A DNA stretch of 64,000 nt. It comes from Coriobacteriia bacterium. GTDB lineage: Bacteria > Actinomycetota > Coriobacteriia > Coriobacteriales > QAMH01. This document shows positions 1,042-56,891 of this stretch, in pieces; the first letter of the stretch is position 1, and the number at the start of each line of letters is the position of its first letter. The notes beneath the pieces are model-generated. The model worked only from the letters and a program-made list of their open reading frames with translations, had not been told where the DNA came from and searched no databases. Location of the stretch: positions 2,774 to 66,773 of the forward strand of contig QAMH01000009.1 of assembly GCA_003149935.1 (NCBI GenBank), given 5' to 3'. The translations under genes and the position numbers were made by a program.

Positions 1042-1677
1042 CGCCTCCAGCTTAGATGTTTGGCGACATTCAAATAAACATTTAGCTGACCGTTCTTCGT
1101 GTTCGTTTTCACTGACAAAGCACGCCATGCCTCCATATGCAATGGCACCTTTATCAATCGTCCTATCACATTCAGGATGCTCCTCAAGGAAAGATTGGAC
1201 CGCACTTTCAACATACGAAACAAAGCGTGTGAGATTTAGGGTAAGGTGCCGCCCTTCCTTCTCTTTATTCTCTTTGTCCTTCGTGCTGTATACCCCATAG
1301 CCGACAACCAGGGGATTCTCGAATGAGAAAACATGGAATCGGACATTGTGATAGTGAGTGAGCTTCCCAGCATCCAATGCTAATGAACCATTATGGAGTA
1401 CAGCATTTCTAATTTGATAAATGTCATTACTGCCAATGCTGTTGCATTCATCATGATAAGACGGGTCGTTTTTAATGATGGGCATCAGATAGTCGTCAGT
1501 CCATCCCATGTACTTTTCAGCATTCGTACGGCAATTACCATCAAGAGAAGAAGCGCACACATCGGGGAGAATAAGTGCGTTGTTTAGTGCTGATATATAC
1601 AATCTTGCGTCCATCGCCGCCACCATTTCAGTGCAATAATCACTGGGTTTCATGCCAATCACTTTCCACGCAGGCAT
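1030..1677 (-). CDS. Hypothetical protein with HEPN-like Rx4H motif (QIRNAVLHNG)
   Basis: 215-aa ORF in an AT-richer island. ATG 1677 is preceded by GGAGAGGGGG. The gene is divergent from the recombinase. Functional assignment rests only on the RNxxxH motif and the defence-island context. Confidence 0.6.
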   Translation of the reverse strand: MPAWKVIGMKPSDYCTEMVAAMDARLYISALNNALILPDVCASSLDGNCRTNAEKYMGWTDDYLMPIIKNDPSYHDECNSIGSNDIYQIRNAVLHNGSLALDAGKLTHYHNVRFHVFSFENPLVVGYGVYSTKDKENKEKEGRHLTLNLTRFVSYVESAVQSFLEEHPECDRTIDKGAIAYGGMACFVSENEHEERSAKCLFECRQTSKLEAGEG

Positions 1678-1753
1678 GTATACCCCCTCTCCGCTAAGCC
1701 CAAACAGCTGTCATATTCATTCTCTTCTGGCAGAGGCGTTGAAAGGAACGAAC

Positions 1754-9982: not shown

Positions 9983-10376
9983 GAGTTGCAGCTCGCACCG
10001 GCAAGCTGCAACGCTCCGACGGTCGCTTCCCGACAGCCCGCTTCGCGGTCTTTACGGCGCGCTCCCTTGAACCTCCGCTTTACAGCTTGCCGGTGCGCTC
10101 AGACAGTCCTCGCAAGACCGCATCGAGCTCAGCGCAACTCTGCCCGAGATGTCCGCAATTCGCTCGCCTTCATTTTTGTAAGTTGTAGCTCGCATTGGCA
10201 AGCTGCATCGCTCCGACGGTCGCTTCCCGACAGCCCGCTTCGCGGTCTTTACGGCGCGCTCCCTTGGACCTCCGCTTTGCAGCTTGCCAGCGCGCTCAGA
10301 TAGTTCCCTTAGAGCCATATCGAGCTCAGCGCGGCTATGCTCGAGATGTCCGCATTTGCTCACCTTCATTTTTGTG
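9983..10376. repeat. Tandem duplication, 2 x 197 bp, each unit with a 13-15 bp stem enclosing ~65 nt
   Basis: Unit 1 spans 9983-10179 and unit 2 spans 10180-10376. The period was established from GGCAAGCTGCA at 10000 and 10197. The end of unit 2 overlaps the last codons of rsmA. Confidence 0.8.
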
Positions 10377-17790: not shown

Positions 17791-18074
17791 TTGCTTGTCC
17801 CTTGAACAACGTGCGCATGATTATTGACGCGAAATTTACCAGCGACCATATTGGCAATAGGCTGTTTTCTAGAACGAAGGTTCTCCCCATCTTCCGCAAC
17901 CAACAAATACTCGCCTTCGTACGAGTAGTCATCTAGATAATCAACAATGCCCTGTGCTCCATAGTATGGATATATTCCAGCTCGCGTTTCGCGCTGCCTT
18001 GCAGAAAGTGGCTCTCTGAGCGAGTCGCAAATCTCAACAACATCTCCCAAGGAAATGTTACATCCCATACCCAA
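17791..18074 (-). pseudogene. hsdS: 5' fragment (~95 codons) of the hsdS gene belonging to the hsdM-hsdR operon, truncated by the IS
   Basis: The start overlaps the hsdM 3' end. The N-terminal TRD sequence ISLGDVVEICDSLREPLSA...YPYYGAQGIVDYLD...FRVNNHAHVVQG runs directly into the IS inverted repeat. Confidence 0.8.
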
Positions 18075-19566
18075 TCGCCTCCAGATTCTTCTTAATCTGT
18101 TCTTGCAAGCGATTGGATTCTTCGAAGCACTTCGCCAACTCGCCGGTCAAGCGTTCCATCTTTTCCTCGAAAGGTTCACCATCATCTTCGACATCGGCGA
18201 TGCCCACATAACGCCCGGGCGTAAGGATGTAATCCTGCTTTGCGATGTCATCGATAGTGGCTATCGCACTGAAGCCCTTTTCTTCTTCAAGCTTGCCCTC
18301 CCTGAAAGCGTCGAATGCTCTGGCGACTCTCGCGATATCCTCATCGGTAAACTCACGCAACCTGCGGCTCACCATCGTGCCCATCTCGCGGGCATCGATG
18401 AAAAGCGTCTCTCCTGGTCGAGACTTTCCCTTCGAAATGATCCAGAGACTAACGGGAATGCCCGTGCTGTAGAAAAGCTTGTCAGGCATGGCTACGATAC
18501 CCTCAACCAAATCGGCATCGACGATGGCTTTTCTGATGTCACCTTCACCGCCCGATTGACTCGATAATGAGCCATTGGCAAGCACCATTCCCATGCGGCC
18601 GCCTTGGGCAAGATGGTGAATCATGTGCTGCACCCATGCGAAGTTCGCATTTCCTTCAGGAGGGGTGCCAAATTCCCATCGCGGATCATTCGCAAGTTCC
18701 TTGCCTCCCCAATCTTTCAAATTGAACGGAGGGTTAGCCAGGATGAAGTCGAAGTCCTCGAACTTGTGAACATCATCAAAGAACGTATCTTTATTCGCTG
18801 GTCCAAGGTTCGCATCAATACCCCTGATGGCAAGGTTCATTGTCGCCATTTTCCAAGTGGTCGGATTGCTCTCCTGACCATAAATAGACAAATCGTCAAT
18901 GTTGCCTTGGTGACGCTTGACGAACTCGGCCGACTGCACGAACATCCCGCCACTTCCACAGCAAGGGTCGTATACGCGCCCATGATAGGGCTCGATAATC
19001 TCGACGAGCGTCTTCACGATACACGCCGGCGTGTAGAATTCGCCAGCGTTCTTTCCCTCGGCTTCGGCAAACTTGCTCAGGCAGTACTCATAAGTTCGAC
19101 CAAGAATATCCCTCGTATCGCCTTTCTCAGCCATTTGAACATTGGTGAAAAGGTCCACCACATCGCCAAGGCGGCGCTTATCCAGTTCTTGCCGGGCAAA
19201 GTTCTTGGGAAGGATATTCTTGAGCTTCGGATTTTCGGCTTCGATTTGGCGCATGGCCTCGTCGATGACTTTGCCAATCTCCGGCTCATGCGCAGCTGCG
19301 GCTATTTCAGACCAGCGAGCGCTTGCGGGGACATAGAAAATGTTTCTATAGCTGTATTCATCTCTGTCTTCCTCAAAACCATCGCCCTCGTCGACAAGCT
19401 CCTGATAGCGTTCGTCAAACTTGTCGGAAATGTATTTCAGGAAGATTAGACCCAAGATAACGCTTTTGTACTCCGAAGCATCTAGGTTGCCGCGAAGCTT
19501 GTCGGCCGCCTTCCAAATTTGCTCCTCGAAACCTATCTCCGCGGTATTCTCGCTCTTTTTTGCCAT
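18058..19566 (-). CDS. hsdM: Type I restriction-modification DNA methyltransferase subunit HsdM
   Basis: HsdM N-terminal domain (LWKAADKLRGNLDASEYKSVILGLIFLKYISD), SAM motif DPCCGSGGM, and catalytic NPPF (ILANPPFNLKDW). Confidence 0.95.
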   Translation of the reverse strand: MAKKSENTAEIGFEEQIWKAADKLRGNLDASEYKSVILGLIFLKYISDKFDERYQELVDEGDGFEEDRDEYSYRNIFYVPASARWSEIAAAAHEPEIGKVIDEAMRQIEAENPKLKNILPKNFARQELDKRRLGDVVDLFTNVQMAEKGDTRDILGRTYEYCLSKFAEAEGKNAGEFYTPACIVKTLVEIIEPYHGRVYDPCCGSGGMFVQSAEFVKRHQGNIDDLSIYGQESNPTTWKMATMNLAIRGIDANLGPANKDTFFDDVHKFEDFDFILANPPFNLKDWGGKELANDPRWEFGTPPEGNANFAWVQHMIHHLAQGGRMGMVLANGSLSSQSGGEGDIRKAIVDADLVEGIVAMPDKLFYSTGIPVSLWIISKGKSRPGETLFIDAREMGTMVSRRLREFTDEDIARVARAFDAFREGKLEEEKGFSAIATIDDIAKQDYILTPGRYVGIADVEDDGEPFEEKMERLTGELAKCFEESNRLQEQIKKNLEAIGYGM

Positions 19567-19574
19567 GCTCGTCC

Positions 19575-22500
19575 TTACTCGTGAATCTTGTTATCAGCCC
19601 AAAGCTCGCACTGGGCCATGACGGTCTCGAGGGCGCCTGCCGCTTCCTCAGGTGGGTACTTGTACTTTTTCAGCAGCCTCTTGATAGCACGCCTCATGCC
19701 CGCTCTCGCACTCTCCTTCTTCTGCCAGTCTATCGTCGCGCTTCTCTGCAACGTATCCGTTAACTCGCGGCTTATCGCGACAAGCTGATCGTTGTCGTAG
19801 AAATCCTTGACGGCCTGTGGTTTGGTGATGGCATCATAGAATGCCATCTCCTCATCGGTAAGTCCCAGCGCCTTGGCGTCGAATCGATCCTGCATCATCT
19901 CGCGTGCCATCTTCAGAAGCTCTTCTATGACTTCGGCATTGGTGAGCATCCCGTTTAGATAGGCGTTGAGTGTTTTTTGGAGCATGTCGCTGAATTTCTC
20001 CGACTTGACGACACTCGTGCGTTGGTATGTCTTCACTTGCTCCTTGATAAGACGCTTCAGACTTTCGAGGGCGACGTTCTTCTGTTTCATGTCTGCGATT
20101 TCGCGTAAAAACGCCTCGTCGAAAAGCGATATCTCGACTTTGTCTTTGTCGAAGAGATTGATGACACCTTCGACTTTAACCGTTTGGTTCATGATCTCGG
20201 TAACGCGCTTGTTGAACTCTGCGTAGCTCATGCCCTTGCCACCGCTGCCATTTCGGCCCTCGATACGCAGAATCTGCACGCGCAGAACAGAGAAAAAGGC
20301 AGCCTCATGCTGATCTTTCTCATCTACGAGGCTTTTGCAAAGGCTCAGGGCCTGATTCATAAGCTGGCACTGCCTGATGAAATCTTCCTTATCATACTCA
20401 CGCTTTGGATTGAGTAGCCAGTCGGTACCATCGGCAATTGCCATCGCAAGATCTGATTTGCTTCCGCTGAATATTTGTGTTTCGTACTTGAAGCCAAACA
20501 GAAGATCCCGGCAAACGCGAAGCTTCTCTTGGAACTTCGGAAGAGCCGTAAGGGCGATGTCCATATCACCGTAATTGGCCTGATCTCGATTCGTATAGTC
20601 CTTCATCGCTCGTTTGAGCGCGTTGGCAATGCCAATGTAGTCGACGACAAGACCACCCTCCTTGCCCTTGCACACACGATTAACGCGCGCAATAGCTTGC
20701 ATGAGGTTATGTCCGGACATGGGTTTGAACACGTACATCGTGGAAAGGCTCGGCACGTCAAATCCGGTAAGCCACATATCGACGACGATGGCAATCTTCA
20801 GAGGATCATCGTCGGTCTTGAACTTTCGTTCCATTTCTTTCTTGTGAGTTGTCCCGCCGCAAACTTCGAACCACTCTTCCGGGTCTTGGTTAGACATCGT
20901 CATCACGACGCCGACTTTCTCTTTCCAATTAGGCCGCAATGCAAGGATCTGATGGTATATCTTCATTGCAATAGGACGGCTATAGGCAACGATGAGTGCC
21001 TTTCCGGCCAGAATATCCTCGCGATTGTTCTCATAATGCTCAACGATGTCCTTACAGAGAGATTCGATGGTTTCCGGCGTGTCGAACAGCGCATCCAATC
21101 CGACATGGTCGCGCTTTGCCTTCTCGACGCTTACCTCATCTGCCTCGGCGGTGAACTCGTTATAGGCGTTATCAAGCTGTTTGAGCGCATCCTCATTGAG
21201 ACTTAGAGCGACAACGCGGCTTTCGTAAAACACCGGTTTGGTGGAATTGTCCTCGACGGACTGTGTCATGTCGTACACATCGATGTAGTCGCCGAATATC
21301 TCGCGAGTGTTCTTATCCTCCGTTGAGATGGGCGTGCCTGTAAAACCAATATAGGAAGCATTGGGAAGCGCCTTTCGCACGACCCTCGCCGCTCCCACGA
21401 TGATGTTTCCCTCGACATCCATGCGCTCAGTGAGTCCATATTGGCCTCGATGTGCTTCATCAACCATGACAACTACGTTTGGTCTGTCGCAAAGAGGCTC
21501 ATCACTGTCGATAAACTTCTGCATGGTGGTGAAGATAATGCCATTTGCTTCGCGCCCCTCAAGTAGCTTCTTCAGGCTCGTCTGATCCTTCGGATTCGCC
21601 TGACTCGTTGCTTGAACAGGTTGCTGGCGCAAGAACTGACTGCATCGGGAGAATTGACCATATAGTTGGTCATCAAGGTCGTTTCTGTCTGTGATAACGA
21701 CAATTGTCGGGCTATCAAGTCGTTCCTGAAGCAAGTGCGCAAGAAAGACCATGGAAAGCGATTTACCGCTCCCCTGCGTATGCCAGAAAACGCCAATCTT
21801 GCCATCACCCTCGACAGCTTCTTCGGTTCTCAAAGCCGCCTTCTTCACAGCGAAATACTGATGATAGGCAGCGAGAATTTTGATTACCTGCCTCGAAGTA
21901 TTGCTAAAGCAAATGAAGTTTTTGACAATATCCAAAAGGCGGTATTTCGACATCATGCCATCGAGCATGGTTTTCCATGTAGCCAATGCGGTTTCGGAAT
22001 AATCTCCGTCAACAGATTTCCAAGCGACGAAGCGGTCTTCGTCAGCTGTAATCGTGCCCACTCTCGTCTCTGCCATATCGCTCATCACGCAGAAGGCGTT
22101 GGGCACAAAAAGGCCCGGAATGTGTTGCATGTAGTTGCGAAGCTGCAGGTATGCCTCGGAAGCATCCGTCTCTTCGCGCGATGGGCTCTTGAGTTCGAAT
22201 ATGACAAGAGGCATTCCGTTGACGAACGCAATGATATCCGGACGCTTCTCCGAATATTCGACGTATGTCCACTGATTTACTACATGGAAGTCGTTGTTCT
22301 CAGGATCGCTGTAATCAATGAGGTAGATGATATCGTCACGTTCCTCTTTGCCATCAAAATAGCGAACCTCAACGCCGTTCTGAAGGTAATCCATGAAGGT
22401 TTCGTTTCTGTGCTGAAGCGAATCGCCCTCAACATTCAAGATCTTCAATATGGCTTCTTGAATCGCGGCCTCTGGTACACCCTTGTTGATGCGAGAAAGC

Positions 22501-22682
22501 GCTCGTGGCAGGACATCCGGAAGAAAAACGTCATCGTATTTATCACTGGTTCTACGAACGTCTGGGCCATGAAGGTAAGTATAGCCGAGCCTATCTCGTA
22601 GGTGTTCAATCACGACGTCCTCGAAGAACTCTTCGTTTATTGGCATCTTGCTGTATGCGTAGTCAACGCCCTTAATCTGCAT
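19575..22682 (-). CDS. hsdR: Type I restriction enzyme endonuclease/translocase subunit HsdR
   Basis: N-terminal PD-(D/E)xK region (PDIIAFVNGMPLVIFELK), helicase motif I (HTQGSGKS), DEAH (VVMVDEAHRGQ), and later SF2 motifs. ATG 22682 is preceded by GAGGAG. The longer track ORF starts at 22733. Confidence 0.95.
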   Translation of the reverse strand: MQIKGVDYAYSKMPINEEFFEDVVIEHLRDRLGYTYLHGPDVRRTSDKYDDVFLPDVLPRALSRINKGVPEAAIQEAILKILNVEGDSLQHRNETFMDYLQNGVEVRYFDGKEERDDIIYLIDYSDPENNDFHVVNQWTYVEYSEKRPDIIAFVNGMPLVIFELKSPSREETDASEAYLQLRNYMQHIPGLFVPNAFCVMSDMAETRVGTITADEDRFVAWKSVDGDYSETALATWKTMLDGMMSKYRLLDIVKNFICFSNTSRQVIKILAAYHQYFAVKKAALRTEEAVEGDGKIGVFWHTQGSGKSLSMVFLAHLLQERLDSPTIVVITDRNDLDDQLYGQFSRCSQFLRQQPVQATSQANPKDQTSLKKLLEGREANGIIFTTMQKFIDSDEPLCDRPNVVVMVDEAHRGQYGLTERMDVEGNIIVGAARVVRKALPNASYIGFTGTPISTEDKNTREIFGDYIDVYDMTQSVEDNSTKPVFYESRVVALSLNEDALKQLDNAYNEFTAEADEVSVEKAKRDHVGLDALFDTPETIESLCKDIVEHYENNREDILAGKALIVAYSRPIAMKIYHQILALRPNWKEKVGVVMTMSNQDPEEWFEVCGGTTHKKEMERKFKTDDDPLKIAIVVDMWLTGFDVPSLSTMYVFKPMSGHNLMQAIARVNRVCKGKEGGLVVDYIGIANALKRAMKDYTNRDQANYGDMDIALTALPKFQEKLRVCRDLLFGFKYETQIFSGSKSDLAMAIADGTDWLLNPKREYDKEDFIRQCQLMNQALSLCKSLVDEKDQHEAAFFSVLRVQILRIEGRNGSGGKGMSYAEFNKRVTEIMNQTVKVEGVINLFDKDKVEISLFDEAFLREIADMKQKNVALESLKRLIKEQVKTYQRTSVVKSEKFSDMLQKTLNAYLNGMLTNAEVIEELLKMAREMMQDRFDAKALGLTDEEMAFYDAITKPQAVKDFYDNDQLVAISRELTDTLQRSATIDWQKKESARAGMRRAIKRLLKKYKYPPEEAAGALETVMAQCELWADNKIHE

Positions 22683-23068
22683 GGTGCTCCTCACGCAACA
22701 ATCCGCTCGAAACAAAGGCGCGTTACAGCGCATTATCGTAATCCGAGAAAATGCTGATATCTTGCGATTATACTTCGTGATTCTACTGCTAGCCGATACG
22801 AACGACTGGTATCAAACTCCAACGCGCGAATGGTGCACTCCGACTACATGCTATGCGACAGGAATAGCCTGCTCCGATGCAGAGAAATGACCGATTGAAA
22901 ATTGCAAATCAGCCCGTATGGACATACGGATGCATCTTCAGTTCTATTAATATACGAATTGGCATGAACTGGATTGCCGCAGGCACTCGAAAGACTGCTG
23001 GTAAAACGCGCGAAACGCAGTCAATATACAGGATAGACGTGCCCTCATCCTTGAATGGTGAATGGATT

Positions 23069-23458
23069 ATGGTAAATCCGAAAGGGAAAATAATTATCGA
23101 ACCAGGGCTGAATATCTGGCCGCACGAACTCAAAACAGCAGAAGCACTAGCCGCCGCTGGTTATACCGTCGAGTTTATTCGTAAAAGCGATGTCGAATAT
23201 GAAAAGACAGCAGACGTGCTAATTGATGGCGTGCAGTGGGAAATGAAAGCGCCTAAATCAGGAAAGACAGATATGATTTTAAAGAACTTGCGTCGTGCGC
23301 TCCATCAATCCTGCTGTGTTGTTTTTGATGCTCGCCGCATGAAGAATTTGCCTAACCAGATAATAGAGCGTGAAGTACGCGCACGCGCCCATGACTTGAA
23401 ATCACTGAGGCATTTAATCTATATCAATCGCTATGGGGAAGTTGTGACAATCAGATAA
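23069..23458 (+). CDS. Small protein with PD-(D/E)xK-like signature (possible restriction-endonuclease-fold nuclease/toxin domain)
   Basis: HELKTAEALAAAGYTVEFIRKS....KTADVLIDGVQWEMKAPKSGK gives the D...E-x-K arrangement. The track ORF begins at 22877, but ATG 23069 (MVNPKGK...) fits the compact domain better. The function is an inference only. Confidence 0.5.
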   Translation: MVNPKGKIIIEPGLNIWPHELKTAEALAAAGYTVEFIRKSDVEYEKTADVLIDGVQWEMKAPKSGKTDMILKNLRRALHQSCCVVFDARRMKNLPNQIIEREVRARAHDLKSLRHLIYINRYGEVVTIR

Positions 23459-23600: not shown

Positions 23601-24431
23601 TTACTTCTCCTCACGGCGATACACGCTGTCGAGCGTTTGGTTCTGATCGTTTACCCACTCAATCCAGCCATTCTGACTGCCCCCAAGCACAAAGACAGCA
23701 GCGGCGCTTGGACTCGGGAACTCATAGTCCTCCTCGTGCGTGACGACTTCGTCCGCATTGCCGAAAATCTGCTTGCGTTTCTCATCCACACCGGTATTTT
23801 TCGTTATCGCATGGGTAAGGTCAATCTGGGAACCAGCTAGGACTGTAAACCGACCCGAGTTCTTGTCATATTTACCGATGCCCTTGATGCCATTGCGTCG
23901 TGTATGGAATACCGGGCTAATCTCAGGACCAGCATAAACCCGATCAAGGTCGAGGCCCAAAGCGGCCATCCGGAACAACACGTCATCGTGCAATCTCTCG
24001 ATGTAGTCTTCGGAATATGGGCTCACGTAAGGCTTGGGAACTTCCGAATTCACCGAGCTGTATGAACCATGCTCAAGAATATATGCAATCGCCTTTGCTT
24101 CGAGCCCGTTGAGAGCATCCTGGCTGAGGTTCTGGTTATCTGTCAGGAACATGACGGCTTTGTTCCAGAAGTCTTTCTTCGCCTTATGGTCATCAAGACG
24201 TCTGATGCCCTGCACGGTCTGTCCGGCATACACGCTACTAATCACTCCATGATCTTCATCAAGCAGATAGTAGATGCCGCGCGAGGGAATGTCGGGAAGT
24301 CGCTTGGCTTCAGGGAGCATAGCTCGCGGTATGACAATGGTCATAAGTGATTCGCCCTCGACGCGGCAGATCCGAATGCCCTCCGGATCACTGTTAATGA
24401 GCTGCATGATTATAGTTTTGAGCTTTATCAC
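23601..24431 (-). CDS. GIY-YIG nuclease domain protein with C-terminal DUF4357-like domain
   Basis: GIYYLLDEDHGVISSVYAGQTVQGIRRLDDHKAKKDFW...LEAKAI is GIY-YIG. The C-terminus is FPSPSAAAVFVLGGSQNGWIEW (DUF4357-like). AT-richer sequence. Confidence 0.8.
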   Translation of the reverse strand: MIKLKTIIMQLINSDPEGIRICRVEGESLMTIVIPRAMLPEAKRLPDIPSRGIYYLLDEDHGVISSVYAGQTVQGIRRLDDHKAKKDFWNKAVMFLTDNQNLSQDALNGLEAKAIAYILEHGSYSSVNSEVPKPYVSPYSEDYIERLHDDVLFRMAALGLDLDRVYAGPEISPVFHTRRNGIKGIGKYDKNSGRFTVLAGSQIDLTHAITKNTGVDEKRKQIFGNADEVVTHEEDYEFPSPSAAAVFVLGGSQNGWIEWVNDQNQTLDSVYRREEK

Positions 24432-25314: not shown

Positions 25315-25351
25315 AAAATGAGACAGTTGCTCAGAGCAACTGTCTCATTTT
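25315..25351 (-). terminator. Rho-independent terminator downstream of gap
   Basis: Perfect 16-bp stem AAAATGAGACAGTTGC / GCAACTGTCTCATTTT with a 5-nt loop, and U-rich on both strands. Confidence 0.7.
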
Positions 25352-26370: not shown

Positions 26371-26469
26371 TCCAGATTCACCTTCCCTGAAAGGTTACAT
26401 AACGACATAAGTATAGCGGTGCTACTTTGGTCTCGCCGCAATCGTTCGGCAGGCGGGATAAATGTTGAG

Positions 26470-26700
26470 CGCGCAAAAAGCCCGGAAGTCTAGGATGCCA
26501 CGAATTCATATGCGCATTTTCTGCGAGAGTCTAGGGTTTGCAGCCCTTTGCAGGAGCAAACTCCTAGACATCCGCAAGAAATGCGCATTCTCACATGCGC
26601 AATCCTAGACTTCCGGGCTTTTTGCGCACGATTCGCTCTGGCAACTCGAATGGCCACTGCAAATCCTAGACTTTGGCGATTTCTGCGCATTGAGTCCTAG
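26470..26700. repeat. Cluster of five 25-bp TGCGCA..GTCTAGG units (2 forward, 3 reverse; 41-bp spacing) forming a ~160-bp nested palindrome
   Basis: Units lie at 26470-26494, 26511-26535 (forward) and 26563-26587, 26604-26628, 26665-26689 (reverse). Unit 1 and unit 4 are 24/25 reverse complements. A central small hairpin spans 26536-26562. Confidence 0.8.
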
Positions 26701-33637: not shown

Positions 33638-33799
33638 CTGTCATCTCGACTGGAGCGGCCGCCAGGCCGCGGAACGGAGAGATCTCTCGGGAGATTTCTC
33701 GACTCCGCGACCTTCGGTCGCTCCGCTCGAAATGACAAGAGGGGATGTCTTCGCTCACTCGAAATGACAAGGCAGCTTCGCTTCGCTCGAAATGACAGG
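33638..33799. repeat. Cluster of 3-4 copies/part-copies of the GAGATTTCTCGAC...GCTCGAAATGACA element
   Basis: The full copy spans 33691-33737. 3' half copies lie at 33749-33772 and 33776-33799. Inverted or degenerate pieces occupy 33638-33690. Confidence 0.75.
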
Positions 33800-38590: not shown

Positions 38591-38630
38591 GAGATCTCTC
38601 GACTCCGCTTCCCTCCGCTCGAAATGACAG
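38591..38630. repeat. Single copy of the dispersed element (GAGATCTCTCGACTCCGCTTCCCTCCGCTCGAAATGACAG)
   Basis: Read directly. It lies between the convergent stops of the PucR regulator and the AAA-MTase gene. Confidence 0.75.
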
Positions 38631-38635
38631 CGGGG

Positions 38636-40882
38636 CTATTTGCGTGCGTTGAACGCCACTGCCTCGAAGCGGACCGTTTCGGTAGTTGGAACGGTCTCGA
38701 CCACCGTACTCGAGGTGAAGCCGCGATCGGCTTCGACCGAATACAAGTCGACGACCTCGACATCCGCGAATCCCGCGGCCTCCATCTGGCTACGCAGCAG
38801 ATCTTCGGGGCGTGCCGCTTGGATGCTGTTGCCGATGTTGCGAGCAGCCTCGACTACTGCCTCGTCGCGCGTCACGTCCGACACGATCGTCTCGCAGATA
38901 AGCAAGCCACCGGGCTTGAGCACGCGATAAAACTCCTCGAGCGCCTTTTGCTGATCGTAGAGCAGTGTCATAACGTTGTTGATGTAGACGACGTCAACAG
39001 TCCCCTCTCCGATGCCAGCCTGCATGAGATCCTCGGGGTAGGCAACCTTGAAGCTCATGTTATTGGCCTTGAGGCCGTTCTTGCGCCACGCCTTCTCGGA
39101 ATCGACAATGGCCTCCTCGATGTAGCTCGGCGACCAGTCGACGCCGATGACGTGACCCGTACCGCCCACCTTCGCGCTGAACTTGAAACAGCCCTTGCCA
39201 CGCCTGCACGCCACATCGAGCACGGTCTTGCCCTTGAGCTGCGCAGCATCGGGCAGGGTCATCTTGCTCATGGACGCAAAGCCATACTCGAACTGCTTGC
39301 CGCCGTAGTACTCGGCGATCGTCTGGCCACCCGTCGCGGCAGTCTCGCCCGGCTGCATGGCCTCCTCGGCGTTGATGTCGAGCGTACGCACGCGCTCAGC
39401 GAGGCTACGGCGATGTTCATCAACCTGGAGCTCGTCATTGTGCGCGTAATACTCCTCATTGCCATAGTGAGCGATGAACTGAGTGGTCGTTTGGCGCGTC
39501 GTAATCTCGGCGATCGCAACGAGCATCTCGCGTCCGTTGCCCCAGGCCTCCTCGATGAACTTGATCGCATTGGTCATCTGCGTGTCCGCCGTCTTGACGA
39601 GCGGATCGATTGCGTTGACCTCATCGCGGTACGCATCGCTGATGGTCGCGAAGGCATCCTCGCCAGCCACCGTACCCGCAAGTCTGCACTGCTCCACGAG
39701 GCGTTTGAGCTTGGCGATGACGAGACCCTCCTTGCGCTCGAAGCTCGGCTTGGCAGTGCCGGAAGCAACCTTGCGCGCCAAGCTCTGCTCGCGCGCCGAG
39801 ATGACGACTCCAACGGTATCATCCACCGCTGCCCCTTCGAGCAATCTCGGCTTGGCATCGCGCAGGATGTCGCGCAGCTCGATGACGACCTCCTCCTGCT
39901 CAAGGGCATGCGCACACGACGTAGAGACTGCATCGAGCATGAGGCCTAGCAACGCCACGCGCTCATCAAACTCGGCACCACGCGCACGGTTAATGATATC
40001 GAGTCCCGCCTCACCGGCGAGAATGCTCATGATCTGGTAGTCAGAGCGGTACTTGTCGAAGAGGTTGTAGTACACCGAGAAGCTATCGGCGATGTCGTCG
40101 TCGCGCAGGAACTGCCCGATGAGATCGCGGCTGATCGGCTTGCTCATTTCCTCGTAGAGCGCAATGGCCTCGGCCAAATCCTCCCAACCGCGTGCGGTGA
40201 CGAAGCTCTTGCCACCACCGGGCTTGGACTGCACGAGGTAGAAGCAGTCGGGCTTGGCCTCGAGGAAGGTCGTTACCACCGGATGTATGCCCTTCTGCGT
40301 GGCGTAGCGCTTCCATGCGGCATACTCGGGCTCGACTTCGATTTCGCGTAAGCGGTCGAGCGTAACGATGTCGAATTCATGTACCGATTTGTTGTACTCG
40401 GGCGGGTTTCCCGCGCAGACGATGATCCAATCATGCGGAATGCGGTGACGGCCAAAGGTCTTGAACTGCAGGAACTGGAGCATCGAAGGATATAGCGTCT
40501 CGGAGACGCAGTTGATCTCGTCGAGGAACAGGATGCCCGCATGCAGGCCCGTCTCGCTCATGTAATCGTAGATGGACGAGACGATCTCGCTCATCGTGTA
40601 CTCGGAGGAGTCGTACTCGAAGCCCTCAAACTCGTTATGCACGATGCGTGGCAGGCCCAGTGCGCTTTGACGCGTGTGATGTGTCATGGAGTACGAAACG
40701 ATGCCGATCTGAAGTTCCTGGGCAATCTGCTCCATGATGGCGGTCTTGCCAATACCAGGTGCGCCAATGAGGAAGATTGGCCGTTGGCGCGCGGGGTTGA
40801 TCTTGTACATTCCCGCGTCATCCTTGAGAAGGTAGGCCTCGACGGAGTCCTTGATCTGTTCCTTTGCGTCGGCAATGTTCAT
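38636..40882 (-). CDS. MoxR/AAA_5-type ATPase fused to a C-terminal class I SAM-dependent methyltransferase
   Basis: Walker A is LIGAPGIGKT and Walker B is ILFLDEIN, with ...IVCAGNPPEYN.... A ~270-aa helical middle region follows. The C-terminal MTase (VLDVACRRGKGCFKF...GHVIGVDW...LKPGGLLICE) is paralogous to 44898-45656. Confidence 0.85.
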   Translation of the reverse strand: MNIADAKEQIKDSVEAYLLKDDAGMYKINPARQRPIFLIGAPGIGKTAIMEQIAQELQIGIVSYSMTHHTRQSALGLPRIVHNEFEGFEYDSSEYTMSEIVSSIYDYMSETGLHAGILFLDEINCVSETLYPSMLQFLQFKTFGRHRIPHDWIIVCAGNPPEYNKSVHEFDIVTLDRLREIEVEPEYAAWKRYATQKGIHPVVTTFLEAKPDCFYLVQSKPGGGKSFVTARGWEDLAEAIALYEEMSKPISRDLIGQFLRDDDIADSFSVYYNLFDKYRSDYQIMSILAGEAGLDIINRARGAEFDERVALLGLMLDAVSTSCAHALEQEEVVIELRDILRDAKPRLLEGAAVDDTVGVVISAREQSLARKVASGTAKPSFERKEGLVIAKLKRLVEQCRLAGTVAGEDAFATISDAYRDEVNAIDPLVKTADTQMTNAIKFIEEAWGNGREMLVAIAEITTRQTTTQFIAHYGNEEYYAHNDELQVDEHRRSLAERVRTLDINAEEAMQPGETAATGGQTIAEYYGGKQFEYGFASMSKMTLPDAAQLKGKTVLDVACRRGKGCFKFSAKVGGTGHVIGVDWSPSYIEEAIVDSEKAWRKNGLKANNMSFKVAYPEDLMQAGIGEGTVDVVYINNVMTLLYDQQKALEEFYRVLKPGGLLICETIVSDVTRDEAVVEAARNIGNSIQAARPEDLLRSQMEAAGFADVEVVDLYSVEADRGFTSSTVVETVPTTETVRFEAVAFNARK

Positions 40883-45706: not shown

Positions 45707-45782
45707 TGGTGCCGACGAAGAGACTCGAACTCTTGACCCCCGCATTACGAGTGCGGTGCTCTACCAGCTGAGCTACATCGGC
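45707..45782 (-). tRNA. tRNA-Thr (anticodon CGU), CCA encoded
   Basis: Manual cloverleaf of the minus strand: GCCGATG-TA-GCTC-AGCTGGTA-GAGC-A-CCGCA-CTCGTAA-TGCGG-GGGTC-AAGAG-TTCGAGT-CTCTT-CGTCGGC-ACCA. Confidence 0.95.
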
Positions 45783-50257: not shown

Positions 50258-50639
50258 TGGTGGAGGTGCGGAGAATCGAACTCCGGTCCACGATAATCCT
50301 GCGAAAGGTGTCTCCAAGCTCAGTCGATGTTCAGTAGGAAACCGCCAAGCACATCGACAAGCGAAAACGGTTTCCTGTCGGTTCGGTCTTAGCCCGGGGC
50401 ATACCGTCTACGTCCCCGGGAGCAACCTCCTTTAAATGATCCCGTGCAGATGCCAGAGGTTTAGCAGCTGGTTGGGAGGGCTGAACCTAAATTAGGCAGC
50501 CAGGGCGACAGGCTGAGCCTGCGCACCCTTGAAAGAAACAACTTTGCCAGTTAATTGGCTTTACCCCTGTTTAACGTGGCGAGGAGACCACGGCCTGCTG
50601 CCCTTCGCTCAAACTATCCTGTCGAAACCAGTCACCCCC
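50258..50639 (-). ncRNA. ssrA: tmRNA (SsrA)
   Basis: The 5' end is GGGGGTGACTGGTTTCGACAGG. The 3' end is CGGAGTTCGATTCTCCGCACCTCCACCA. The internal tag reading frame is GKVVSFKGAQAQPVALAA-stop. Confidence 0.95.
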
Positions 50640-51426: not shown

Positions 51427-51624
51427 GTTTATCCGTACGTCATGTAAGCCATTCTAGAATACTATCCCCCGTTTACGGCTCAAAACCGCCCGTAAATTGT
51501 TTGCGAATCGTTTTATCTCTGCAACAGAATGAGGTTTCTTTATAGTAGGTTCGGTGTCATAGCTTCGCTGCGATTTCGTGTGAGGGGCACGCGCGGCGAG
51601 TTTGATTGGAAGATGGAGGTATCT

Positions 51625-52887
51625 ATGCAAGATTCGTTTATCGAGTCGCTTGAGTCGCGTGGTTTGACACGTCGCGCCTTTCTCGGCTTCTGTGGCACGA
51701 TTGCAGCTGCAATCGGCATTGAAGGCGTAACGGCTGCCGATGTTGCCGAAGCCATCGAGAGCAACTCCCTTATCGGTACGAACGGAGGTTTGGGCCAAGG
51801 CGGCCTCGCACCAGTCATCTGGATGGAGCTTGGTTCCTGCACCGGTTGCACCGAGTCTTTTGCCCAGTCTGATAACCCCGATCCGGCAACGCTGCTCCTC
51901 GAGTATCTCGCGCTCAACTACGCCGAGACCCTCTCTGCCGCTGCTGGCTACTCCCTCGAGGAAGCTCGCGAGGAGACGATCGAGGCTGCTAAGGGCAAGT
52001 ACGTCGTCGTCATCGAGGGTGCTGTCATGACCCGCTACGATGGCGAGATTCTGCGCATCGCGGGTGCCCCCACCTGCGCTCCGCACGAGAGCCACCTGCT
52101 CCACACCTGCAAGAACGCTGCTGCCGTCATCGCCGCAGGTTCCTGCGCTGTCGACGGTGGTTTCTGCGCGGCATATCCCAACCCGGGCAATGCCGAGGGT
52201 ATCCAGAAGTACCTCAAGGACAATGGTGTGTCGACTCCCGTCGTCAACCTTCCCTCTTGTCCCGTCAATCCCGCTAACCTGGTTGCAGTCATCGTTCAGT
52301 ACCTGCTGCTGGGAGCCGAGTCCGTCGTTGCCGGTCTCAACGAGTTCAACATGCCGAGCTCCATGTATGGCCAGACCATCCATGACAACTGCGAGCGTCG
52401 CGGCCACTTCGAGAACGGCGAGTTCGTCTACGAGTTCGGCAGCGAAGAAGAGGCCAAGGGCTACTGCCTGTACGCTCTCGGCTGCAAGGGTCCACAGACC
52501 AAGGCCAACTGCCCGCAGGTTCGCTGGAACCGTCGCGTGAGCTGGTGCGTCGCCTCTGGTGCTCCCTGCATCGGCTGCTGCAACGGCGACCCGCGCGTCA
52601 CGGTCCGCAACTGGATCGACGTTGACTCCCCGTTCCTGGGCCGTCTCAAGACCCTCAGGCTCGGCAGCATCGCATTCCAGCCGACCCCGATCGCACTCGG
52701 CGTCACCGGTCTTCTGACCGCCGCCCTCGTCGTCCATGGTATCGGCATGAAGGCTACGGGCCGCACCAAGGGCGGTGCTCCGTTCGAGAAGGAGCGCGAG
52801 TGGGACGTCAAGCACGGCAAGAAGGAACCCTCCACCGTACCTGTCGTCGAAGAGCAGGTCATCGTTGACATTGAGGAGGGTAAGTAA
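51625..52887 (+). CDS. [NiFe] uptake hydrogenase small subunit (Tat signal, C-terminal TM anchor)
   Basis: MQDSFIESLESRGLTRRAFLGFCG has the twin-arginine motif. Fe-S Cys motifs CTGCTES and ...GCKGPQT.ANCP...GAPCIGC are present. ATG 51625 is preceded by GGAGG. Confidence 0.9.
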   Translation: MQDSFIESLESRGLTRRAFLGFCGTIAAAIGIEGVTAADVAEAIESNSLIGTNGGLGQGGLAPVIWMELGSCTGCTESFAQSDNPDPATLLLEYLALNYAETLSAAAGYSLEEAREETIEAAKGKYVVVIEGAVMTRYDGEILRIAGAPTCAPHESHLLHTCKNAAAVIAAGSCAVDGGFCAAYPNPGNAEGIQKYLKDNGVSTPVVNLPSCPVNPANLVAVIVQYLLLGAESVVAGLNEFNMPSSMYGQTIHDNCERRGHFENGEFVYEFGSEEEAKGYCLYALGCKGPQTKANCPQVRWNRRVSWCVASGAPCIGCCNGDPRVTVRNWIDVDSPFLGRLKTLRLGSIAFQPTPIALGVTGLLTAALVVHGIGMKATGRTKGGAPFEKEREWDVKHGKKEPSTVPVVEEQVIVDIEEGK

Positions 52888-52889
52888 AC

Positions 52890-54611
52890 ATGGCTAAGCA
52901 TTCTATTATCGATCCGGTTGATCGTATCGAGGGCCACCTGCGCGTCGAGATGGAAGTCGAGAACGGCGTCGTCACTGACGCTTGGGTCTCCGGCGGCCTT
53001 TTCCGTGGCCTCGAGCTCATCGCCGAGGGTCGCGATCCCTATGACGCGGCCATGCTCGCCCAGCGCGTCTGCGGCGTCTGCCCTGTCTCGCACTGCCACA
53101 CCTCCGTTTTCGCGGCTGAGGAGGCCTACGGCATCCAGATTCCCGAGGGCGGCCGTCTGGTCCGCAATCTCATCGAGGGTGCGCAGTTCATGCACAGCCA
53201 CATCCTGTGGTTCTATCAGCTGAGCGCGCTCGACTACGTCAACCCGCTGCACGCACTTGAGGCTGACGTCAACAAGACCTATGCCCTGTGCGAGACCCTC
53301 GGTCTTGCTCAGACCGACTTCGCCGCGCTCAAGGATCGCCTCGCGAAGTTCGCCGAGAATGGCCAGTACTCCTGGCTGTCCGGCGGCTGGTTCATGGAGG
53401 GCCTGGCACCCGAAGCCTACAAGCTTCCGGCCGAGGTCGACCTCATCGCCACGGCGCACTACATCGAGGCCATCGACATGCAGGCAACTGCCGACGAGAT
53501 CTCCGCGATCATCGGTGGCAAGATGCCGCACGTTCAGACCTCGATTCCCGGTGGCACCGCCTGGTACCCGAGCGTCGAGAAGCTCGATGACATCCTGTTC
53601 CGTGCCAAGAAGCTCAAGGACTGGGTCGACAACGTCATGATCCCCGACGCCATCGCCATCGCGAGCGTCTACCTCAATGACGTCGCCACCATCGGTAACA
53701 ACAAGCATGGCAACTTCATGGCCTACGGCGTCTTCGACCGTCCGTCGCGTGAGCTCGAAGACCGTTTCTTCCCCGCGGGCATCGTCCGCATGAAGAGCGG
53801 CGCTCCGGTTCTCGAGCCGTTCGATGGTGCCTACATCACCGAGGGCACGACGCATGCCTACTACAAGGACAGCGGCGAGCCGCTGCATCCCACGGTTGGC
53901 GTAACCGAGCTCCCCGAGACCTTCCCCGGCTACTACAAGAACGAGGCCGAGGAAATCGTCAACGACAAGTACACCTGGTCCAAGGCTCCTCGCTACGACG
54001 GTGAGCCCATGGAGGTTGGCCCGCTCGCTCGCGTGCTCGTCTCCTACATGAGCGGCAACCCGGAGATCATCGCCGGCGTCAACACCGTTCTCGCTGGCCT
54101 CAACCTTCCGCTGACCCCGGCCAGCATCATGGGCCTCAACTCCGCGCTTGGCCGCCTGGCCGCCCGCCCCGTCGAGGCTTCCGCTGTCGCTGGCTACATG
54201 ATCGACTGGTGCGGCGAGCTCGTCGAGCTCCTCGGCCTCATCGAGGCCGGCGCCGTCGAGGGCAACCCCTGGTTCGCCGAGCGTGTCCGTGACACGGGCC
54301 TGGGCGAGGGCTTCTGGGAGGCTCCGCGTGGCGCTCTCTACCACACCGAGACCCTCTCCGGCAATACGATCACGCACTATCAGGAGGTCGTCCCCACCAC
54401 GTGGAACATCTCCCCGCGTGACGAGTACGGCGTGCCTGGCACCATCGAGCAGGGCCTCATCGGCACCCCTGTTGCCAACATCGAGGCTCCGATCAACGCC
54501 CTGCGCATCGTCCACGGATATGACCCGTGCGTTGCCTGCGCGGTCCATATCGTCGAGCCCAAGACGGGTCGCGAGTTCAAGATGCACACGAGTCCTTGGG
54601 GAGGTCGATAA
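52890..54611 (+). CDS. [NiFe] hydrogenase large subunit
   Basis: RIEGHLRVEMEV, RVCGVCPVSH (N-terminal CxxC) and DPCVACAVH (C-terminal CxxC). Confidence 0.95.
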   Translation: MAKHSIIDPVDRIEGHLRVEMEVENGVVTDAWVSGGLFRGLELIAEGRDPYDAAMLAQRVCGVCPVSHCHTSVFAAEEAYGIQIPEGGRLVRNLIEGAQFMHSHILWFYQLSALDYVNPLHALEADVNKTYALCETLGLAQTDFAALKDRLAKFAENGQYSWLSGGWFMEGLAPEAYKLPAEVDLIATAHYIEAIDMQATADEISAIIGGKMPHVQTSIPGGTAWYPSVEKLDDILFRAKKLKDWVDNVMIPDAIAIASVYLNDVATIGNNKHGNFMAYGVFDRPSRELEDRFFPAGIVRMKSGAPVLEPFDGAYITEGTTHAYYKDSGEPLHPTVGVTELPETFPGYYKNEAEEIVNDKYTWSKAPRYDGEPMEVGPLARVLVSYMSGNPEIIAGVNTVLAGLNLPLTPASIMGLNSALGRLAARPVEASAVAGYMIDWCGELVELLGLIEAGAVEGNPWFAERVRDTGLGEGFWEAPRGALYHTETLSGNTITHYQEVVPTTWNISPRDEYGVPGTIEQGLIGTPVANIEAPINALRIVHGYDPCVACAVHIVEPKTGREFKMHTSPWGGR

Positions 54612-54613
54612 TC

Positions 54614-55345
54614 ATGGCACATCTCGTACACTATCCTGAGGCACATCCGTTCGTCTTCCGCTTTACCCACTGGGTCAACCTCATCTGCATGCTTCTCCTT
54701 ATCCTCTCGGGTATCGAGATTCACTACCCGGTTGTTCCCGGCCTGATGGGCATGGCTCGTGGCGTGCACATGTTCTGCGCGTTTGTGATCCTCATCAACC
54801 TCATCTTCCGTATTGTCGCCGCTGGCTTCATCAAGTCCGCTCCGGCTTACGGCACCCGTGAGACCAAGCTGGATATGTACACGTTCTTCCCGCAGAAGGA
54901 CAACCGCCACCAGCTCTGGCCGTGGATCAAGTACTATCTCTTCTTCAAGAAGGACCATCCCCTGGGTGGCAAGTACGGCGTACCGCAGAAGCTGTCCTAC
55001 ATCCTCATCGCTGTAGCTCTCCTCTTCATGGGCTACACGGGCTTCTGCCTGTGGGTTCCGACGATGAACATCCCGTTCTTCGCTGGCTTCACTGCGCTCG
55101 TCGGTGGTCTGATGAAGGTGCGCGTCATCCACTACTTCATGATGTTCTTCTTCATCTGCTTCACGCTCATCCACATCTACCTCGCCAACATCGAGGGTAT
55201 CGATCCGACCAAGGTCATGCTGCTTGGTTCCAAGCCGCATGGTGGTCTGACCTACAGCCTGGAGACCATGAACGTCTCCGGTTACGATCCCATGGACGAG
55301 GAGATCATCGTCATGGAGGACAAGGTGGTCCTCGAGAAGGAGTAA
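54614..55345 (+). CDS. Ni/Fe-hydrogenase b-type cytochrome subunit
   Basis: MAHLVHYPEAHPFVFRFTHWVN..., with four TM segments bearing conserved His. ATG 54614 is preceded by GGAGG. Confidence 0.9.
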   Translation: MAHLVHYPEAHPFVFRFTHWVNLICMLLLILSGIEIHYPVVPGLMGMARGVHMFCAFVILINLIFRIVAAGFIKSAPAYGTRETKLDMYTFFPQKDNRHQLWPWIKYYLFFKKDHPLGGKYGVPQKLSYILIAVALLFMGYTGFCLWVPTMNIPFFAGFTALVGGLMKVRVIHYFMMFFFICFTLIHIYLANIEGIDPTKVMLLGSKPHGGLTYSLETMNVSGYDPMDEEIIVMEDKVVLEKE

Positions 55346-55369: not shown

Positions 55370-55406
55370 GGGGCCCGCGGGAAATCCTGCGGGCCCCTTC
55401 CTTTTT
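55370..55406 (+). terminator. Rho-independent terminator after the hydrogenase structural genes
   Basis: GGGGCCCGC-gggaaatcct-GCGGGCCCC followed by TTCCTTTTT. Confidence 0.8.
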
Positions 55407-55413
55407 CGAAGCG

Positions 55414-55602
55414 TGCGCATTTCTGGCGGATGTCTAGCGACGAAAAGCGATTGCAAGCGCAGAAATCGCGAAAGTCTAGGATTTAAACGCTTGAACCCTA
55501 GACTTTCCTCATAAATGCGCACGCAGGTAAGCCAAATCCTAGAGATTCGCGAAAAGTGCGCAACGCAGAGCAACAAGGCTAGACATCCGCCAGAAACGCG
55601 CA
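55414..55602. repeat. Cluster of five 25-bp TGCGCA..GTCTAG units (2 forward, 3 reverse; 40-42 bp spacing) forming a ~190-bp nested palindrome
   Basis: Units lie at 55414-55438, 55456-55480 (forward) and 55497-55521, 55538-55562, 55578-55602 (reverse). The outer units are 24/25 reverse complements. The units match those at 26470-26700 at 23/25. Confidence 0.8.
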
Positions 55603-55659
55603 TCCCTTCGCATGGGCAGCGGTAACAGCGAGCATCTCGTTGGTGATAAGATTGTGCCC

Positions 55660-56181
55660 ATGCAAAAACACGACAACATCACGCTCATTGGCATGCCCGG
55701 TGCTGGCAAAAGCACGCTCGGCGTTGTGCTCGCCAAGAAGCTCGGGTATCGCTTTGTCGATACCGACCTGCTCATCCAGGAAGGCGAGGGCATGTTGCTC
55801 TCGGAGATACTGGAAGCACGCGGCACTGAAGGCTTCATTGCCTGCGAGAACGAGTTGCTCGCGAATCTCTCGTGCGCTCGCCACGTCATCGCGACAGGCG
55901 GCTCGGCCGTGTATGGTACCGACGCCGTTGCAAACCTGAAGTCGCTGGGAACCGTCGTCTTCCTCGACTTGAGCCTCGACGAAATCTCCCGTCGGCTTTC
56001 ACCCGACCTACTCGACCGTGGGGTCGTCATCCACCAGGGAAGCACGCTCGCTGACCTCTACGCAGAGCGTCATCCGCTCTATGTGCAGGCAGCTGATCTC
56101 ACCGTAAAGCTCGACGGTCTCAGTACGCTCGAATCGGTCGAAAAGCTCACGGCAGAGCTTGCGTTGTACCTGCAAGCATAA
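55660..56181 (+). CDS. aroK: Shikimate kinase
   Basis: MQKHDNITLIGMPGAGKSTLGVVLAKKLGYRFVDTDLLIQ... The track ORF begins at 55612. Confidence 0.9.
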   Translation: MQKHDNITLIGMPGAGKSTLGVVLAKKLGYRFVDTDLLIQEGEGMLLSEILEARGTEGFIACENELLANLSCARHVIATGGSAVYGTDAVANLKSLGTVVFLDLSLDEISRRLSPDLLDRGVVIHQGSTLADLYAERHPLYVQAADLTVKLDGLSTLESVEKLTAELALYLQA

Positions 56182-56194
56182 CGAAGGAGACATT

Positions 56195-56752
56195 GTGGAA
56201 GATATCAAGCAGATGGTCGTCTGCGTGGGAAACATGCTCATGCTCGACGAGGGTTTTGGCTCGCACATGGCCAAGGTACTGACTAATTACGATGTCGCCC
56301 GAGAAGCCTTCGATGATGCCCATGCCCGGACGCTTGTCGAAACCTTTCGCGAATACGATGCCCATGACGACGACGGAGCTGACGAACGCATCCCCGTCAT
56401 GGATGCTGGCACCATGGGCATGGGGCTCATCCCGTACATTCGTGATTTCGACCGCCTGGTCATCGTAGATGCCGTGGATTGCGGACCCGATGCGGCTCCC
56501 GGCACCTGTTACACCTTCACACCCGAGGATATGGCAGCCTATAGCATCATGCACTCGCTGCACGACATGCGCGTCTCGGACGTGCTCAATAACGCACGTC
56601 TGGCTGGGCATGACTGTGACATCCGCTGCGTGGGCGTGCAGAAGAAGGACATCTGCCCACGAGATTTCACCATCGACCTTACCCCCGAGGTGAAGGCGGC
56701 CGTGCCCTACGCGGTCGATGCGGTGCTCGAGCTACTGGAAATCAGCCTGTAG
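56195..56752 (+). CDS. Hydrogenase maturation endopeptidase (HyaD/HybD family)
   Basis: VVCVGNMLMLDEGFGSHMAKVL...LVIVDAVD. GTG 56195 is preceded by GAAGGAG. Confidence 0.85.
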   Translation: MEDIKQMVVCVGNMLMLDEGFGSHMAKVLTNYDVAREAFDDAHARTLVETFREYDAHDDDGADERIPVMDAGTMGMGLIPYIRDFDRLVIVDAVDCGPDAAPGTCYTFTPEDMAAYSIMHSLHDMRVSDVLNNARLAGHDCDIRCVGVQKKDICPRDFTIDLTPEVKAAVPYAVDAVLELLEISL

Positions 56753-56757
56753 GTGCT

Positions 56758-56798
56758 GAGATTTCTCGACTCCGCTACGCTCCGCTCGAAATGACAAG
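56758..56798. repeat. Single copy of the dispersed element (GAGATTTCTCGACTCCGCTACGCTCCGCTCGAAATGACAAG)
   Basis: Read directly, 6 nt after the maturation protease stop. Confidence 0.75.
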
Positions 56799-56836
56799 AA
56801 CGAGCGCTCAGTTGAAAGACACAAAAAAGGGGCTCG

Positions 56837-56872
56837 CAACAAGAAGGCCCGCAGATGCGGGCCTTCTTGTTG
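56837..56872. terminator. Bidirectional terminator between the convergent hydrogenase protease and rpsI
   Basis: Perfect 16-bp stem CAACAAGAAGGCCCGC / GCGGGCCTTCTTGTTG with a 4-nt loop. Confidence 0.75.
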
Positions 56873-56891
56873 CATATATGTCTCTCGAAAC

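Follow-up and report, generated by a model that had tools for sequence, protein, structure and literature searches.

The 64-kb window analysed here, the whole stretch of DNA under study, carries between its NiFe-hydrogenase genes and aroK a 189-bp array in which one short sequence recurs five times, twice forward and then three times reverse. What is this array? The source organism is an uncultured member of the Coriobacteriia/Coriobacteriales from gut-type metagenomes, and its closest named relatives (Adlercreutzia) have a cytochrome b only about 57% identical. The initial annotation described a nested palindrome of 25-bp units splitting the hydrogenase cluster, and held that its likeness to a second array in the window spoke for a composite element, mobile or under functional constraint, and against chance. 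A pattern scan re-found all five units at the positions first reported (55414-55438 and 55456-55480 on the forward strand; 55497-55521, 55538-55562 and 55578-55602 on the reverse strand), and the start-to-start spacing was again 42/41/41/40 bp. Likewise reproduced were the 24/25 reverse complementarity of the outer pair and the 23/25 matches of units 1 and 2 to the reverse complements of 26563-26587 and 26665-26689, respectively. The two loci thus share the unit, although its conserved length is 28 bp and not 25, and they share the layout of two forward and three reverse units, but not the period, which in the sister array is 41/53/41/61.

The genes upstream of the array (51529-55345) encode the hydrogenase small subunit, large subunit and cytochrome b; downstream lie aroK and then the hydrogenase maturation protease gene hycI. 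The array itself has no plausible ORF, and a sigma-70 promoter scan found no promoter within either window array. Immediately ahead of the array, the terminator noted earlier proved real, with a hairpin at 55370-55397 followed by a T-run. A TAAGAT -10-like hexamer in the stretch between array and aroK, just 5' of the likely aroK start, may be a promoter element of aroK. In every relative examined, whether it has the array or not, aroK separates the cytochrome b gene from hycI (55612-56752; L096, L097, L098). Because the array-free L096, L097 and L098 keep this order, the hydrogenase cluster is interrupted by aroK and not, as had been proposed, by the array. Coordinates of the array, its sister and the features around them are collected in Table 1.

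Table 1. Coordinates of the repeat arrays, their units and associated features (window coordinates unless a locus label is given)
Feature	Position	Strand	Basis or remark
Whole array, L2 L1 / R1 R2 R3	55414..55602	+	pattern scan, weight matrix and oriented alignment
Unit L2 (left arm, outer) TGCGCATTTCTGGCGGATGTCTAGCGAC	55414..55441	+	weight matrix (PWM) 27.0 bits
Unit L1 (left arm, inner) AGCGCAGAAATCGCGAAAGTCTAGGATT	55456..55483	+	PWM 38.2 bits
Unit R1 (right arm, inner)	55494..55521	-	PWM 35.4 bits
Unit R2	55535..55562	-	PWM 38.1 bits
Unit R3 (right arm, outer)	55575..55602	-	PWM 25.3 bits; 24/25 complementary to L2
Lineage-specific segment, 247 bp (array, 6 bp left, 52 bp right)	55408..55654	.	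BLAST breakpoints
Intrinsic terminator, 12-bp stem then T-run, outside the element	55370..55406	+	end of hydrogenase genes
Unique 52-bp stretch, array to aroK	55603..55654	+	without repeats elsewhere
aroK (shikimate kinase)	55612..56181	+	start probably 55654 (GTG) or 55660 (ATG)
Sister array, L2 L1 / R1 R2 R3, spacing 41/53/41/61	26470..26689	+	pattern scan, weight matrix, oriented alignment
TTGAG, left copy of 5-bp direct repeat abutting sister array	26465..26469	+	
TTGAG, right copy of 5-bp direct repeat abutting sister array	26690..26694	+	
47-bp palindrome copies, window	12144-12195, 33691-33740, 38591-38636, 56752-56799		
47-bp palindrome copies, L030	8744-8793, 9493-9546, 11578-11627		
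47-bp palindrome copies, L065	1157-1209, 2590-2643		
47-bp palindrome copy, L074	913-965		

Aligned over 48 units, the 28-bp consensus reads TGCGCA-nWWWY-SGCGRAW-GTCTAGG-RTT. With at most one mismatch allowed, TGCGCA-N12-GTCTAG occurs at ten sites in the 64-kb window, all of them in the two arrays. A 28-bp weight matrix trained on 38 units from other loci, with the window units excluded, gave the ten array units 25-38 bits and everything else in the window 12 bits or less, the maximum of 20 shuffles being 15.5. This specificity of pattern and matrix means that the repeats are real and far beyond chance. The view that the array is ordinary spacer whose repeats arose by chance or by local duplication only can draw on low complexity in parts of the unit and on nothing further; it is refuted by the matrix specificity, by the occurrence of the element at at least 13 loci and by the homology of whole arrays described below, and its probability is negligible. 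The tetranucleotide CTAG is rare in the window (55 in 64 kb, 10 inside the arrays), and its avoidance, or that of restriction sites, was considered as an explanation and gave no mechanistic lead.

The element is present at at least 13 non-orthologous intergenic loci, orthologous copies being merged, in assemblies of uncultured human-gut Coriobacteriia/Coriobacteriales. A scan for tandem unit pairs in one genome per species returned three loci, all in two uncultured human-gut Coriobacteriia metagenome-assembled genomes (MAGs), and a looser scan of metagenome contigs returned 85 stretches, about 35 of them true members. Copies are about 70-77% alike and occur about once per 30-60 kb of the sampled DNA; solo units were essentially absent from the scans. 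The neighbours are unrelated housekeeping genes, among others pntB, a CLC channel with an ABC transporter, an Fe-hydrogenase, ligA, symporters and GNAT acetyltransferases, and most arrays lie just 3' of a gene or inside convergent spacers. A similarity search of plasmids and phages with the element gave no match, and tandem and head-to-head unit patterns matched viral contigs only once, by chance and in coding sequence. A literature search yielded no relevant report on Coriobacteriia REP sequences, Eggerthellaceae MITEs or the unit motif. This repeat family is previously undescribed; to our knowledge, interspersed repeats have hardly been described at all for the Coriobacteriia, which are common in the human gut but poorly cultured.

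Every cluster consists of a forward block followed by a reverse block, never the opposite, so that the TGCGCA ends face outward. The forms observed, as forward plus reverse units, are 2+3, 2+2, 1+3, 3+1 and 3+2. Arrays of non-orthologous loci align with one another from end to end and in a single orientation only, as the local alignment scores in the same versus the reversed orientation illustrate (61 versus 25 for winB-L076; 59 versus 30.5 for winB and the Fe-hydrogenase locus; 14.5 versus 57.5 for L030-L062a). A multiple alignment of 13 oriented arrays assigns the units to the positions L2 L1 / R1 R2 R3. The full 2+3 form is found in both window copies, in L076 and in the pntB copy, and the remaining forms are short of an outer unit or have one in addition. 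Homology of whole arrays in one orientation indicates that they share a polar composite as ancestor and were not put together independently from site to site. L040 and L076, two copies of a single locus, are distinguished by precisely one 41-bp unit, which indicates that unit number changes by slippage or unequal exchange. A CRISPR array, which would have direct repeats in one orientation and unique spacers of about 26 bp or more, was ruled out, as both orientations occur within an array and the spacers measure only 13-17 bp.

The distances between units are discrete. Units of the same orientation are spaced by 40-42 bp (25 cases), 51-52 bp (5), 61-62 bp (2) or 73 bp (1), and the forward-to-reverse junction measures 42-44 bp (11 cases), 53-54 bp (2) or 64 bp (1); no spacing between these classes occurred among the measured arrays. 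The classes correspond to whole helical turns, with steps of about 10.5 bp by which all units stay on the same side of the DNA. The rule holds in all of about ten independent length variants, for which a rough estimate puts the probability under random indels in the order of 1e-8. Of all the observations, helical phasing points most strongly to cooperative protein binding, and it would suit two rather different kinds of binder. One would be a transposase or recombinase acting on the ends of a mobile element, the reading that we favour. The other would be a host protein, nucleoid-associated, topoisomerase-type or regulatory, that occupies the phased units as a BIME-like site maintained by the host for an architectural or insulating role, whatever the origin of the array. 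Spacing quantised in whole turns agrees with such host sites, as does the position of arrays at gene 3' ends and in convergent spacers, although the flanking genes share no class, and neither the strict forward-then-reverse polarity nor the homology of whole arrays is something that this reading requires.

We examined the aroK site in relatives of the window. Among sequences with an identical hydrogenase large subunit, L001 and L003-L005 carry the array and L002 does not. L002 is 98.5% identical to the window up to position 55407 and resumes at 55655, with 44 bp in place of 247 bp. The site is also array-free in L098 (cytochrome b 94% identical) and in L096/L097 (83%), where the spacers are 94-117 bp long; the more distant L023 (93.5% identical) has the array. 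The array-free spacers of L002 and L098 contain TTGCGCTAGAATG, which includes a TAGAAT -10-like hexamer, together with a Shine-Dalgarno sequence, so that the 44-bp segment of L002 is a promoter/RBS spacer. The array-free state of L002, L098 and L096/L097 makes the array-bearing state the derived one, and L002 looks like a recombinant carrying an array-free allele. Filled and empty alleles differ not by a clean insertion but by a replacement that includes the 52 unique bp to the right of the array; inclusion of this right flank in the mobile unit was rejected, since its sequence occurs nowhere else. The alternative of an ordinary conserved spacer with no other genomic copies is contradicted by the array-free relatives and by the presence of the family at at least 13 loci, and the same two observations, dispersal over non-orthologous loci and presence/absence among relatives, bear out the initial proposal of a mobile or functionally constrained composite.

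The sister array occupies the spacer that separates the stop codon of proB from the promoter of gap, both genes being on the minus strand. Four other lineages, whose ProB is 92-96% identical, have no array there. The proB-gap spacer as a whole (window 26371-26696 compared with L100-L124) is hypervariable, ranging from 65 to 326 bp, with the gap promoter and RBS conserved. Five states of it were distinguished among lineages whose ProB is 92-97% identical to that of the window: the array (window, L042, L121 and L122), a different 47-bp repeat (L110-L113), a remnant of the 47-bp repeat (L100-L109), an unrelated 180 bp (L123 and L124) and a minimal spacer of 65 bp (L120). The check for target-site duplications suggested with the first description gave a divided answer within the window, with none at the aroK site and the 5-bp TTGAG repeat around the sister array. 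Six ProB look-ups did not find an exact empty allele matching the TTGAG duplication. Over the family, flanking direct repeats were seen at L062a (TCCG, 4 bp) and at the sister array, and at none of about ten other loci. The arrays are therefore dispensable at both window loci in close relatives, which speaks against sites maintained by the host, and the lack of a flanking duplication at the aroK site and most other loci speaks against mobility, as does the replacement, in place of a clean insertion, at the aroK site. The TTGAG and TCCG repeats speak for mobility.

The palindromic layout raises the possibility that the array works as a hairpin, either as an RNA stem-loop for transcription termination or for protection of the mRNA upstream, or as a DNA cruciform. 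Compared with shuffled sequences, the region 55405-55612 folds with z of -9 to -10 on either strand and the sister array with z of -11.8, the innermost L1/R1 pair usually offers a stem of 7-10 bp, and the arrays sit 3' of genes. The good folding of both window arrays is due to their near-identical L2/R3 (aroK site) and L2/R2 (sister) pairs, and it is not general to the family: z is only -1.3 and -1.4 at L062a and L030, the 1+3 and 3+1 forms cannot fully pair, and in the diverged orthologue L023 the outer units L2 and R3 have drifted apart independently, without compensation. Nor are the arms complementary as a rule, the N12 identity of opposite-orientation units being 6.3/12 within a locus and 5.9/12 between loci, compared with 7.5/12 for tandem neighbours. 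With arm complementarity this low across loci, the nested palindrome is a by-product of opposed oriented units and not the conserved feature. No terminator was found within the array at the aroK site, the only such site being the canonical one upstream, and Rfam searches, whether at gathering or at permissive thresholds, returned for the arrays nothing but hairpin-like matches below threshold. A functional hairpin is accordingly quite improbable.

Near-perfect 25-bp inverted repeats 139 bp apart and upstream of a gene could also mark an invertible switch, in which a recombinase would flip the segment between the outer units and so alter expression of aroK-hycI or gap. Inversion would leave the forward-then-reverse rule intact, and the window has a tyrosine recombinase gene at 1652-2716, though this adjoins a type I hsdS gene. 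Against a switch, about 27 independent assemblies covering four loci (the aroK site, pntB, CLC/ABC and the Fe-hydrogenase) show a single internal order relative to the flanks, the outer repeats are dissimilar at most loci, and several arrays lie in convergent spacers without a gene to switch. We regard inversion as very improbable.

The behaviour of the array after it is in place bears on the choice between a mobile element and a host-maintained site. In a first comparison of orthologues, variable columns made up 4.9% of the motif, 7.2% of N12 and 13.6% of the spacers (p=7e-4), as would be expected if the units were conserved as host sites. The search that supplied many of these orthologous copies required the core pentamers, so that the estimate for the core positions is biased, and conserved units were rejected as a conclusion from this comparison because its signal lies mostly at search-pattern positions and is subject to ascertainment bias. 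When positions were separated accordingly, orthologue mismatches amounted to 2.7% at core positions in the search pattern (a biased figure), 13.2% at consensus positions outside the pattern, 9.8% at variable unit positions, 19.0% in spacers and 5.2% in flanks, which are mostly coding. Orthologous arrays thus diverge faster than their flanks, and consensus positions outside the pattern are not protected. Beyond the two core pentamers, these alignments hold little sign of purifying selection in place, and the mismatch pattern outside the core fits decay after insertion better than maintenance by the host. The core figure itself, bias notwithstanding, could mean function in situ and to that extent counts against mobility, and the array at the Fe-hydrogenase locus has been kept across relatives whose loci differ in G+C (0.60 versus 0.65-0.66). 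On balance, we consider a host-maintained site possible but unlikely. A more novel reading is more doubtful still, namely that the arrays are not decaying transposon relics but serve as functional sites on which a lineage-specific complex assembles, such as a domesticated transposase-like protein or a centromere/condensin-type binder, and that this complex would require two opposed and helically phased sets of 28-bp sites. If true, it would add to this uncultured lineage of gut actinobacteria a chromosomal architectural element of a new kind. Turnover of copies favours mobility, since recent paralogues exist, with L010 and L018 90% identical over about 290 bp and L062a and L062b 89.5% identical.

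We hold with moderate confidence that the array is a lineage-specific, non-coding, non-autonomous mobile element whose arms bind a transposase acting in trans. Such an element would be about 150-230 bp long, with two distinct, facing arms of oriented 28-bp units, canonically two on the left and three on the right. As the TGCGCA ends point outward, it would start with 5'-TG and finish with CA-3'. The units would be binding sites for a transposase or recombinase supplied in trans, and the protein may assemble on both arms, along sites on one face of the helix, as at the ends of IS21, Mu and Tn7-like elements. At the aroK locus, the element would have come with, or before, the replacement of the ancestral aroK promoter/RBS spacer. 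The family, its polarity, phased spacing and dispersal, its presence/absence among relatives and the gain or loss of a 41-bp unit are observed directly; protein binding, a transposition mechanism and an autonomous partner are what these features suggest.

The ends of Mu and of Tn7-like and Tn402 elements carry a series of transposase-binding repeats in the same direction, the two ends being mutually inverted. The array resembles these ends and those of IS21, and miniature derivatives of such ends, in its opposed repeat series, its 5'-TG...CA-3' termini and its unequal arms, here of two and three units. We know of no description of regular spacing at about 41 bp, or four helical turns, as a feature of IS21, Mu or Tn7-like ends. 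Further differences are that the array has no transposase genes inside or found nearby, that most copies are without flanking duplications and that the units share no sequence similarity with any end compared. Each end of IS21 contains two or more repeats, with a catalytic CA and a stagger of 5 bp (PMC11208146), and the likeness to them extends to the 5'-TGCGCA...TGCGCA-3' termini and to the one copy with a 5-bp flanking repeat.

Among small elements, classical bacterial MITEs such as Correia, RUP and Nezha are similarly short, non-coding and dispersed between genes, with inverted ends and presence/absence among close relatives. Unlike theirs, the arms of the array are two or three phased 28-bp units rather than a simple terminal inverted repeat, target-site duplication is inconsistent, copies are only about 70-77% alike and copy number is low. 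REP sequences, BIMEs and REPINs share with it oriented short units, extragenic positions near gene 3' ends, restriction to a lineage, variable number and possible binding of protein. They differ in that the unit here is not a self-complementary hairpin: its consensus has only a weak internal dyad (TGCGC..GCGnA, with position 16 mostly a purine) and no GTAG-type head. Moreover, the two orientations form opposed blocks and do not alternate, and no RAYT gene was seen in the DNA sampled. The BOX elements of Streptococcus pneumoniae (boxA-boxBn-boxC) are also modular, polar, non-coding and interspersed, with internal modules of about 45 bp that vary in number, but they are built from three different module sequences, whereas the array uses one unit in both opposed arms, and the two have no sequence similarity. 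Interspersed non-coding repeats and MITEs are a known kind of element. In this family, a single 28-bp unit is oriented and set out as a polar 2+3 array whose spacing follows whole helical turns, a combination of which we know no description for miniature elements.

Scans of genomes, metagenomes and viral contigs, together with about 0.5 Mb of retrieved contigs, an incomplete sampling, revealed no autonomous element bounded by such units, which counts against mobility. Every tandem unit pair seen in these scans belonged to a compact array. Individual candidates were considered and dismissed. The IS256-family transposase gene in the window (16403-17713) belongs to an element whose inverted repeats (16348-16372 and 17759-17783) are unrelated to the units, and a 326-aa ORF between two L062 arrays had only a weak DUF559 match and no NCBIfam or PDB match. 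A DnaA-like AAA+ ORF adjoining the L010 array gave no IstB_IS21 match. Should a partner protein exist, its 2+3 whole-turn sites would be a ready substrate for studies of multi-site nucleoprotein assembly; should it be absent, the maintenance of phasing would need a different explanation. The family is compact and easily recognised, and since its presence and unit number vary between close strains, it could be useful for telling strains apart. The element also rewrites spacers close to promoters, as here, where the ancestral aroK-hycI promoter/RBS region is replaced.

A second, unrelated interspersed repeat was seen in the same DNA, an imperfect palindrome of about 47 bp with the structure GAGATTTCTCGACTCCGC-(GC hairpin)-GCTCGAAATGACAG (copies in Table 1), which often adjoins five-unit arrays. 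Comparison of the empty L019 with L077 and L065, which have one or two copies, shows a clean insertion right after ...TGGCAG, without duplication, the insert ending in ...ATGACAG. This behaviour resembles that of IS200/IS605 or REP elements, and the 47-bp family looks more REP-like than the five-unit arrays do.

At L062 (5549-7270) and L088 (7056-9216), a 326-aa ORF is enclosed by two or three arrays that lie within about 2 kb. The L088 arrays also bracket an A+T-rich 300 bp with repeated TTTGCA(A/T)TTTTGCAA motifs, and a replacement the size of a gene, just past the arrays, distinguishes L062 from L088.

Several other features of the window were recorded. The tyrosine recombinase gene lies directly upstream of type I hsdS, with hsdM and hsdR about 15 kb away (1652-3951 and 18058-22733), a layout typical of phase-variable type I systems. 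The IS256-family (Mutator-type) element spans 16348-17783 with 25-bp inverted repeats and adjoins the type I restriction genes in a low-G+C stretch. Between 20 and 24 kb, where G+C is also low, genes for a protein with a CdiA C-terminal toxin domain and a DUF4357 protein adjoin each other (22877-23458 and 23601-24431). A 196-bp segment occurs at 9984-10375 in two tandem copies that are 87% identical, and near-perfect intergenic palindromes of 37-38 bp (95-97%) at 25315-25351 and 56836-56873 are probably terminators. A tmRNA gene adjoining smpB (50258-50639) and a tRNA gene (45710-45782) are both on the minus strand.
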